Of a DNA stretch of 5,142 nucleotides, positions 2,350 to 3,360 are shown one piece after another. Each line of letters begins with the position of its first letter. The stretch's first letter is position 1. A program made the position numbers and the translations under genes. This DNA comes from Escherichia coli. Its GTDB lineage: Bacteria > Pseudomonadota > Gammaproteobacteria > Enterobacterales > Enterobacteriaceae. Under the pieces are notes generated by a model. That model did not search any database. It was not told where the DNA came from and saw only the letters and a list, made by a program, of their open reading frames with translations. The stretch lies in NCBI RefSeq assembly GCF_003334315.1, contig NZ_QOWR01000097.1. One strand, given 5' to 3'.

Positions 2350-3360
2350 ATGAAGAAGTATTGGTTTTTGTTTTTGTTGATTATTCCATTTTTTGGGCAG
2401 GCGAAATGTACCCCTAAGGGAACTTGGACAGCAACTCAACCAATTACACTGGACTTAACAACGGATTCAACAATAGTAAGTTTTAATCCCAACCTGCAAG
2501 GATCTTATGAATGTAACTCGAGGGGGGATAAGATGTATTTTGCAACAACGTTAGATGACTATATTGTTGAAATGAAAGATGGCTCCAGCAATAAGTCTAT
2601 TTTTATTAAATTAAAGCTTGAGGCTGATGGATTTCCTGTAGAAACGAGTGGTTCGCTTCTGTCGCCTAAAACCTATTCTGTTGCTGATACCATTAATAAT
2701 AAACAACTGAAGTTAACGGCCTCATATATACCACCAACTGAATATAGAAGTGATCGTGGTGAAGCGGTAGAGGGGGATTCATTCGAATTGAAAAAAGCGG
2801 CGGCTAATTTTTTGTCTGATAATACATGTAGTTCAAATATTCTTTCATGGATAGCATGCTATGTTTTGGGATTGTTAAATAAAGGTGAAGCTTACGAACA
2901 AAAACTAACCATTAATGTTAAACACAAACCCACAACCTGTCGTTTCTCGCAACCGACTTACGAAATAAGAATACCAGAAACAACGATAAGTGAAATGCTA
3001 TCTGCCAATAACTCAAAATCAGGTTCTGTAGATCTGGTCCTAAATTGCGATAGTGTCTATAACGTCACGACTAATCCAGTGACTTTTAAAGTTGAGCGTG
3101 GTGTGTGGGATGATAGTGGAACAATATTGAAAAATACATTGTCCGATGGTGCTAAGGGTGTAGGGTTCCAGATTTACAATGGTAATGCAACGACACCGTT
3201 AAAGCTGGGCGATACCCTGATGAACAGATTACCTAAAATGGCGGCTATTCAGGAGCAGTACATCTTCCCGATTACCGCAAAATACGTTCGCGTGAAAGAG
3301 GAAGCTTTACAGCCTGGGGAAGTTCAAGGCCAGGCGATATTTGCCGTATCCTACGACTAA
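2350..3360 (+). CDS. Fimbrial tip adhesin-like protein (two-domain: N-terminal putative lectin domain plus C-terminal pilin domain), secreted, 336 aa
   Basis: ATG at 2350 is preceded by AGGA at 2340-2343 and lies 10 bp after the usher stop. The N-terminus MKKYWFLFLLIIPFFGQA|KC is a classic Sec signal peptide. The C-terminal ~120 aa end ...GEVQGQAIFAVSYD, with the conserved Gly and penultimate Tyr typical of chaperone-usher pilin domains. Its size and position directly downstream of the usher match FimH-like adhesins. The first 40 codons of ORF-track ORF 2230..3360 overlap the usher 3' end and are not part of the gene. Confidence 0.72.
   Translation: MKKYWFLFLLIIPFFGQAKCTPKGTWTATQPITLDLTTDSTIVSFNPNLQGSYECNSRGDKMYFATTLDDYIVEMKDGSSNKSIFIKLKLEADGFPVETSGSLLSPKTYSVADTINNKQLKLTASYIPPTEYRSDRGEAVEGDSFELKKAAANFLSDNTCSSNILSWIACYVLGLLNKGEAYEQKLTINVKHKPTTCRFSQPTYEIRIPETTISEMLSANNSKSGSVDLVLNCDSVYNVTTNPVTFKVERGVWDDSGTILKNTLSDGAKGVGFQIYNGNATTPLKLGDTLMNRLPKMAAIQEQYIFPITAKYVRVKEEALQPGEVQGQAIFAVSYD

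Follow-up and report, generated by a model that had tools for sequence, protein, structure and literature searches.

The heads of tip adhesins decide which surface a bacterium sticks to. Just two heads of the Yeh/Yhl fold class have been studied so far, YehD, which binds plant pectin and luminal fibres, and YhlD, which binds colonic mucosa (Tamadonfar et al. 2026, PMC12778044). The receptor-binding domains (RBDs) of these two adhesins, with 14.1% identity to each other, are each built on a jelly-roll core into which a flap of two helices is inserted between strands 9 and 10; one disulfide is found N-terminally, and another staples together the helices of the flap. Also conserved are a Trp at the interface of flap and core (W143 in YehD, W142 in YhlD) and a Ser on the lip of a candidate pocket (S49 in YehD, S51 in YhlD) (PMC12778044). 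Yeh fimbriae are core-associated in Escherichia coli (PMC3559732). Here we describe a gene lying at positions 2350-3360 (plus strand) of a 5,142-nucleotide (nt) stretch of E. coli contig NZ_QOWR01000097.1 (assembly GCF_003334315.1), the whole of which is referred to below as the window. In our judgement the gene very probably encodes the tip adhesin of a four-gene pilus of the Yeh/Stc group (gamma4), bears a swappable head of the YehD/YhlD class and has recently been orphaned by the insertion sequence IS1.

The open reading frame starts with ATG at 2350, ten bases past the stop codon of an usher gene, and comprises 336 codons followed by a TAA stop. Its ribosome-binding site, AAGGA, lies 6-7 nt 5' of the ATG and overlaps the usher stop codon. 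An identical protein with the same start is present in strain PEC389 (RefSeq WP_053270477.1), where the product name is just 'fimbrial protein'. The N-terminus, MKKYWFLFLLIIPFFGQA|KC, has the form of a Sec signal peptide as judged by inspection (MKK, a hydrophobic core, then GQA|KC), so that a preliminary description of this DNA, made from the sequence alone, was right in calling the gene intact and in giving its product a signal peptide. Cleavage is predicted after residue 18 (2350-2403, plus strand) and would leave a Cys at mature position 2, in keeping with the way in which the mature YehD and YhlD chains of the crystals begin. Cysteines are found at residues 20, 55, 160, 170, 197 and 233.

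The sole Pfam domain is Fimbrial (PF00419; residues 187-336, E 7e-13), encoded at 2908-3357 on the plus strand. This pilin domain contains an HKPTTC motif that is invariant in the family, the C197/C233 pair and a C-terminal ...FAVSYD strand, the protein as a whole ending ...GEVQGQAIFAVSYD. Foldseek matches it to the pilin folds of FimH, FimA, PapA, PapH and FimG. The C-terminal pilin-like domain with this ending, predicted earlier, is thus seen both by Pfam and in the fold comparison. The pilin domain follows the N-terminal domain (hereafter N-domain) directly: with the Pfam boundary at 187, the latter covers residues 19-186 (2404-2907, plus strand), about 168 mature residues rather than the roughly 190 first estimated. 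It has a beta-rich core and does contain cysteines, as had been said, at mature positions 2, 37, 142 and 152. The AlphaFold model of the whole protein, with a predicted local distance difference test score (pLDDT) of 79.6, matches FimH, LpfD, PapG, CsuE and CfaE with E values of 1e-9 to 1e-7, these likewise consisting of a lectin domain joined to a pilin domain. These whole-model matches, the Pfam domain and the position as last gene of its operon all agree with the two-domain tip adhesin originally proposed. Chaperone-usher tip adhesins are an already known kind of protein, and the gene does not represent a new kind of system.

For the N-domain, no sequence match was obtained in Pfam, NCBIfam or the sequences of the Protein Data Bank (PDB). 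Searches of the PDB sequences with phmmer and, using a family profile, with hmmsearch returned nothing for it, and a profile of 18 diverse N-domains gave 14 matches among 1.84 billion representative proteins, apparently all to its own family. No close match to an adhesin of known specificity was found. At first the domain had not been placed in any adhesin family; its predicted fold now places it. Modelled alone with AlphaFold2 (pLDDT 86.8; predicted template modelling score, pTM, 0.82), it yields exactly five significant Foldseek matches in the PDB, all of them to the RBDs of YehD (9N4G, 9N4I, 9N4H) or YhlD (8V9V), with E values of about 1e-6 to 1e-5, template modelling (TM) scores of 0.56-0.66 and 14-15% identity. 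The next structure is UclD at E 0.06 and TM 0.22, and the lectin domains of FimH, PapG, F17G and UclD are not matched when the N-domain is searched alone. The structure prediction that had been recommended as a test for a FimH-like lectin domain thus points elsewhere, to YehD and YhlD.

The best structural match is the YhlD RBD from O157:H7 Sakai (TM 0.65-0.66, 14% identity); the RBD of YehD (K-12 YehA, b2108; 9N4G) follows at TM 0.60 and E 8e-7, with 15% identity in the structural alignment. The cysteines correspond: those of the window protein fall at mature positions 2/37 and 142/152, those of YehD at 2/37 and 136/146, and those of YhlD at 2/37 and 135/143. A framework of C2 and C37 plus a second pair 8-10 residues apart is thus common to YehD, YhlD, the window protein and a second allele of the family, from strain W444, described below. 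In YehD, as here, the second pair is 10 apart and sits in a helical element between the last two strands; in YhlD the separation is 8. With YhlD the window protein additionally shares a D42-K43 pair, and a short HHalign segment (33-71) is in register. The predicted helical flap (residues 158-172; 2821-2865, plus strand), located between the last two beta-strands of the domain by DSSP on both models, includes C160, W167 and C170. In the model of the N-domain its helices span mature residues 140-143 and 146-154, between strands 134-137 and 163-171. The Trp, W149 in mature numbering, precedes C152 by three residues, the same spacing as that of W143 and C146 in YehD. By its modelled structure, then, the N-domain is placed as a third sequence class of the recently defined Yeh/Yhl flap-type RBD fold, with the W444 allele as a fourth. 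The fold recurs in AFDB50 in about 30 more clusters of fimbrial adhesins, 320-410 amino acids in length and 10-20% identical, from Vibrio, Aeromonas, Klebsiella, Pantoea, Erwinia, Serratia, Photorhabdus and others.

Several observations weigh against this placement. HHalign comparison of the N-domain gives a probability of 0.9% with the YehD RBD and of 5.3% with that of YhlD, so that homology to these domains would be drawn from predicted structure, at TM 0.6-0.66 at best, and not from sequence. The flap, modelled with less confidence than any other region (pLDDT ~66), comes out shorter than the flap inferred from the crystallised sequences, that of YehD for instance. Its Trp is not conserved in the family and is absent from the W444 allele. 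Finally, mature residues 49-51 are T-L-D, offering no obvious counterpart of the pocket-lip Ser of YehD and YhlD.

The operon to which the gene belongs was recognised from the usher remnant that precedes it (205-2339, plus strand), comprising codons 118-828 of an 828-codon Yeh/Stc-type usher. This scores 1281 bits (cutoff 933) against NCBIfam PRK15217 over profile positions 129-826, which assigns it to the YehB/StcC subfamily. The intact locus consists of four genes, encoding a major subunit of 182 amino acids, a chaperone of 226, the usher of 828 and, last, the adhesin of 336. Intact operons are found in strains PEC389, HeN100 and W444 and on plasmids; among the loci compared, complete major-subunit/chaperone/usher/adhesin operons occur at L001 (PEC389), L002 (HeN100), L005, L006 and L009-L017. 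Relative to K-12 yehABCD the island proteins show 63% identity for the usher, 56% for the chaperone, 34% for the major subunit and 26%, in the pilin domain only, for the adhesin. The yeh/stc locus of Salmonella and Citrobacter is considerably closer (usher 80-81%, chaperone 77-79%, major subunit 45-48%, adhesin 68-71% over its full length), as is the operon of E. marmotae (usher 90%, chaperone 81%, major subunit 50%, adhesin 62-65%). Full-length homologues of the adhesin form 118 clusters at 90% identity, all unnamed, from E. coli, E. marmotae, Salmonella enterica (including subsp. diarizonae and salamae), Citrobacter and Pseudenterobacter. The Salmonella enterica and Citrobacter fimbriae have the same four-gene order and an 828-residue usher, and their adhesins are true full-length homologues. 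Their operons, however, occupy the ancestral yeh/stc position, metG-mrp-yehE-[operon]-rcnB-thiMD, whereas in E. coli operons of the window type are carried by mobile elements; K-12 yehA, likewise, is located between mrp and rcnB, unlike the window operon type, which in E. coli is on the pheU island or plasmids. The window operon is thus of the Yeh/Stc group (gamma4), and its lineage, mobile in E. coli, resides on the chromosome in neighbouring taxa. In E. marmotae (L014-L017, about 4200-9020) the type I-F CRISPR-associated genes csy1-csy4 directly precede the operon and infA-aat-cydCD follow it, which adds a third chromosomal setting for a Yeh/Stc-group operon of the window type; at L017 two short open reading frames stand in place of a whole major-subunit gene.

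Some care is needed with names. YhlD of 8V9V is ECs_2914, encoded at the canonical yeh locus of Sakai (L008 31245-32279) and identical over the native residues of the crystallised chain; the neighbouring usher is 92% identical to K-12 YehB. The alternative that YhlD is ECs_0019 (L004 6327-7287) was rejected, this being a frameshifted pseudogene in NC_002695.2 which lacks the cited residues and has no match to 8V9V. In the literature the name 'Yeh-like' covers both the ECs_2914 locus and the different, nhaR-linked genes ECs_0019-0024 of Sakai (Low 2006; Wurpel 2013). The latter also make up a four-gene operon of the gamma4 type and belong to the same broad group, with 56% identity to the island usher, 50% to the chaperone and 32% to the major subunit, but the adhesin gives no BLASTP match to theirs, and ECs_0019 differs in the Cys pattern of its N-domain and in its locus.

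Comparison with strain W444, which has the operon in the same pheU island, shows that the head differs while its surroundings do not. The usher remnant has one mismatch to W444 in 2135 nt. Divergence begins at 2343, identity is 58% across 2404-2907, and beyond about 2950 the two are again about 100% identical throughout the rest of the sequence that they share. The exchanged segment (2343-2945, plus strand) thus takes in the signal peptide and the RBD as well as the beginning of the pilin domain. The W444 head is of the type of allele P0045 (96% identity), is 89% identical to the E. marmotae allele P0050 and has a G+C content (GC) of 30.7%; P0045 itself is 44% identical to the window protein in the N-domain and 95% in the C-terminal domain. 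Across the family, mean pairwise identity is 43% in the N-domain, compared with 73% in the pilin domain. Among complete E. coli genomes 29 have the window-type head and about 70 more have other heads of the family. On account of the sharp mosaic breakpoints against W444 the N-domain is seen to be an exchangeable recombination cassette, and so a separately acquired module. The canonical yeh locus provides a precedent for RBD exchange on a conserved operon, since its K-12 and Sakai ushers are 92% identical and the RBDs of their adhesins are not alignable; the YhlD RBD thus resembles the window head in having been swapped onto a conserved operon. Allele P0004 (83% identity to the window protein) is near-identical except that its flap segment is replaced and lacks the first flap cysteine (C160), which points to mosaicism below the level of whole domains.

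A divergent or separately acquired head had already been proposed in the preliminary description, and W444 supports it; the low GC that was cited in its favour does not. Of the two 60-nt samples quoted there, that from the usher (601-660) does have the GC given, 50.0%, and that from the adhesin gene (2581-2640) has 35.0%, not 37%. Over whole features the contrast is smaller, with 39.4% for the adhesin gene (36.6% in the N-domain, 42.8% in the pilin domain) and 44.6% for the usher remnant. Moreover, K-12 yeh has the same pattern, its yehA, B, C and D genes having 38.7, 45.5, 39.3 and 40.5% GC, to be compared with 39.4, 43.9, 39.5 and 40.3% for the corresponding genes here, and GC was rejected as evidence of separate acquisition.

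The usher, described as dead at the outset, is indeed cut by IS1 at codon 118. Positions 1-204 (minus strand) hold the left end of the element, with its terminal inverted repeat and insA codons 1-49, which translate to the InsA N-terminus; insA is transcribed away from the usher. The reverse complement of this segment differs at one of 204 positions from what we take to be the left end of IS1. The junction corresponds to nt 352/353 of the intact 2487-nt usher gene of PEC389, and the reading frame resumes at codon 118, so that the usher has been deprived of its signal peptide and of the larger part of its N-terminal domain; the rest of the usher is uninterrupted over 698+ codons. PEC389, whose usher is intact, is 100.0% identical to the window over 205-5142. 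IS1 matches in E. coli genomes run to thousands, yet the exact IS1-usher junction was found in 0 of 5,426 complete E. coli genomes, two seemingly full-length matches having been rejected as joins to IS1 copies lying nearby. Given the identity to PEC389 and the rarity of the junction, the insertion is recent and specific to the source strain. Because the orphaning is recent, the intactness of the adhesin gene reflects a lack of time to decay and says nothing about selection.

With the signal peptide of the usher and the greater part of its N-terminal domain gone, and with IS1 lying between the adhesin gene and the operon promoter, the adhesin is here most likely neither expressed at operon level nor assembled. 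Upstream of the gene the best match to an internal promoter is 9/12, and the number of promoter-like sites is no greater than chance. In this genome, then, the gene has most likely been orphaned very recently, with its product going unassembled, and is probably a silent by-product of the IS1 insertion; its orphaned state is an ordinary recent IS1 event. This reading comes from the window alone, and the source genome could hold elsewhere the missing 5' end of the usher gene or another copy of the whole operon.

The operon is found in mobile contexts of two sorts. On a chromosomal island of E. coli the fimbrial operon is followed by phd-doc, the island being bounded by an integrase and tRNA-Phe and adjoining dicD-dsbD-cutA-dcuA (the pheU position). 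The same linkage of fimbrial operon and phd-doc is seen on the chromosomal island and on plasmids (L001, L002, L005, L006, L009). The unit present on plasmids comprises the four-gene operon, phd-doc and a pdcA fragment (window 205-4250; L006 5202-10876; L009 12347-17939). The window itself derives from the chromosomal island, not from a plasmid, because it has a transposase fragment and an integrase where the plasmids have a primase. In PLSDB 23 plasmids contain at least 80% of window 205-4143. The carriers are non-mobilizable IncFIB plasmids, mostly of about 106-115 kb, which encode a tail fibre, tail fibre assembly and tail proteins, a DnaB-like helicase and a primase. In the tail region they show about 75% identity to Salmonella phage SSU5 and to SSU5-like phages of ~107 kb, and they accordingly look like phage-plasmids of the SSU5/pHCM2 type. 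No description of a chaperone-usher or fimbrial operon as cargo of SSU5-type phage-plasmids was found in a literature search, and in a phage collection the match was to the phd-doc module only. The phd-doc pair of the window (3545-4143, plus strand; NCBIfam TIGR01552 and TIGR01550) has about 91% DNA identity to the addiction module of phage P1. This likeness and the fragment that follows roughly at 4151-4252, annotated as P1 PdcA, suggest that the fimbrial operon first acquired a stability module derived from P1 and only then spread to plasmids and island. The operon is thus mobile among gut E. coli of animals and humans, its vehicles being a tRNA island and what appears to be a phage-plasmid. 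Its carriage there and the exchange of head cassettes are the most interesting aspects of the locus, the clean cassette breakpoints providing a concrete example of how adhesin specificity might be changed by recombination with the assembly machinery untouched.

With an intact operon, the adhesin would be made and used as follows. The precursor would be exported via Sec and its 18-residue signal peptide removed. Three disulfides would be expected: C20-C55, one within the helical element (C160-C170) and one within the pilin domain (C197-C233). The cognate chaperone would hold the incomplete immunoglobulin-like pilin domain, and the chaperone-adhesin complex would be the first substrate at the N-terminal domain of the usher, thereby bringing the adhesin to the tip of the pilus. 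There the jelly-roll core, with a disulfide-stapled helical flap gating a candidate pocket, may bind a ligand. Homologous recombination between the conserved 3' end of the usher gene and the conserved start of the pilin domain would swap heads on an otherwise identical operon. In the window, IS1 at usher codon 118 has removed the signal peptide together with most of the substrate-recruiting N-terminal domain and has cut off the adhesin from the operon promoter. As the N-domain forms a separate sequence class, at 14-15% identity, its ligand most likely differs from both pectin (YehD) and colonic mucosa (YhlD); and since the two studied heads of the fold bind different targets, a distinct receptor specificity is plausible.

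We also put forward, tentatively, a wider scheme in which same-fold heads without recognisable sequence likeness are swapped as cassettes of about 600 bp, from the 3' end of the usher gene to HKPTTC, on operons that are shuttled between genera by SSU5-type phage-plasmids and tRNA islands. The window head would then have a receptor of its own, possibly connected with colonisation of the livestock gut, a tie considered because many carriers come from pig, poultry and cattle.

Other explanations of the gene and of its head were weighed. The adhesin might still function here if another copy of the operon, for instance on a phage-plasmid, or canonical YehB and YehC assembled it in trans; recent orphaning and service in trans were the two possibilities raised in the preliminary description. 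Double carriage does occur, YY76-1 having the operon on both chromosome and plasmid and LD93-1 at two places within one record; Yeh is, as noted, core-associated in E. coli (PMC3559732); and the adhesin gene is intact. Intactness, however, is explained by recency alone, given the 100% identity to an intact locus; IS1 is interposed between the gene and the operon promoter, and promoter-like sites nearby are at chance frequency. Rescue by the canonical Yeh system in particular is unlikely, with a chaperone 56% and an usher 63% identical and a pilin domain only 26% identical to that of YehA. Assembly in trans is on balance distinctly improbable, and recent orphaning, with PEC389 100.0% identical and the junction in 0 of 5,426 genomes, is the better answer. 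A second alternative, that the product is a minor structural pilin or a regulator and not an adhesin, takes its support from names: RefSeq calls it just a 'fimbrial protein', and it has a weak match to NCBIfam PRK15216, a model named 'putative fimbrial biosynthesis regulatory protein' that presumably represents S. Typhimurium StcD. That match is to the pilin domain alone. Both NCBIfam adhesin models that match do so over the C-terminal half only, with about 26 bits against cutoffs of about 400, the E. coli YehA model PRK15252 giving 26.4 bits (cutoff 395) and hence falling below threshold. The protein is twice the length of a pilin, its extra N-terminal domain has adhesin RBDs as its sole solved relatives, it is encoded by the last gene of the operon and its whole-protein fold matches are tip adhesins, all of which makes a non-adhesin role hardly credible.

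The diversity of the heads can be explained in other ways than by exchange of specificities. N-domains of chaperone-usher adhesins, FimH for example, are known targets of positive selection, and the window head could in principle have diverged by rapid mutation in situ under diversifying selection within the E. coli lineage, with no import of a cassette. Point mutation cannot, however, produce about 42% nucleotide divergence confined to roughly 600 nt between near-identical flanks; the W444 head is close to an E. marmotae allele (89% to P0050), and head GC differs, at 36.6% in the window and 30.7% in W444. Divergence in place is accordingly judged extremely improbable. More serious, though still rather unlikely, is the idea that the variation is antigenic or serves to evade phages, the alleles binding the same or similar ligands: retention of the fold and the Cys framework beneath a highly variable surface sequence would be expected under immune or phage pressure too. 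Divergence to 14-44% identity nevertheless extends beyond loops to core and flap positions, and YehD and YhlD do bind different targets (PMC12778044). An imported head of the YehD/YhlD class, on a tip adhesin recently orphaned by IS1, remains the reading that we prefer.

Other features of the window lie downstream of the adhesin gene. The operon ends in a hairpin resembling an intrinsic terminator, with an 11-bp stem followed by a T-run (3388-3421, plus strand). Beyond phd-doc, positions 4187-4504 (minus strand) retain what is left of the orfA of an IS3-family transposase, a gene that other strains also have annotated as partial, and 4654-5142 (minus strand) the 3' part of a P4-type tyrosine integrase, which in intact loci abuts tRNA-Phe (pheU). 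In other strains the part of the pheU island 5' of the fimbrial operon varies and includes defence genes among copies of IS1 and IS3; RADAR rdrB and a dptF fragment occupy this position in HeN100 (L002 1601-5543) and a DUF262 protein in PEC389 (L001 1740-3608). By eye, a perfect 12-bp inverted repeat, GCACTCCGGGCA-ATC-TGCCCGGAGTGC, was noticed at 4619-4645, just past the integrase stop codon; it is followed on the plus strand by a T-rich stretch and may represent a terminator between the integrase and the IS3 remnant.

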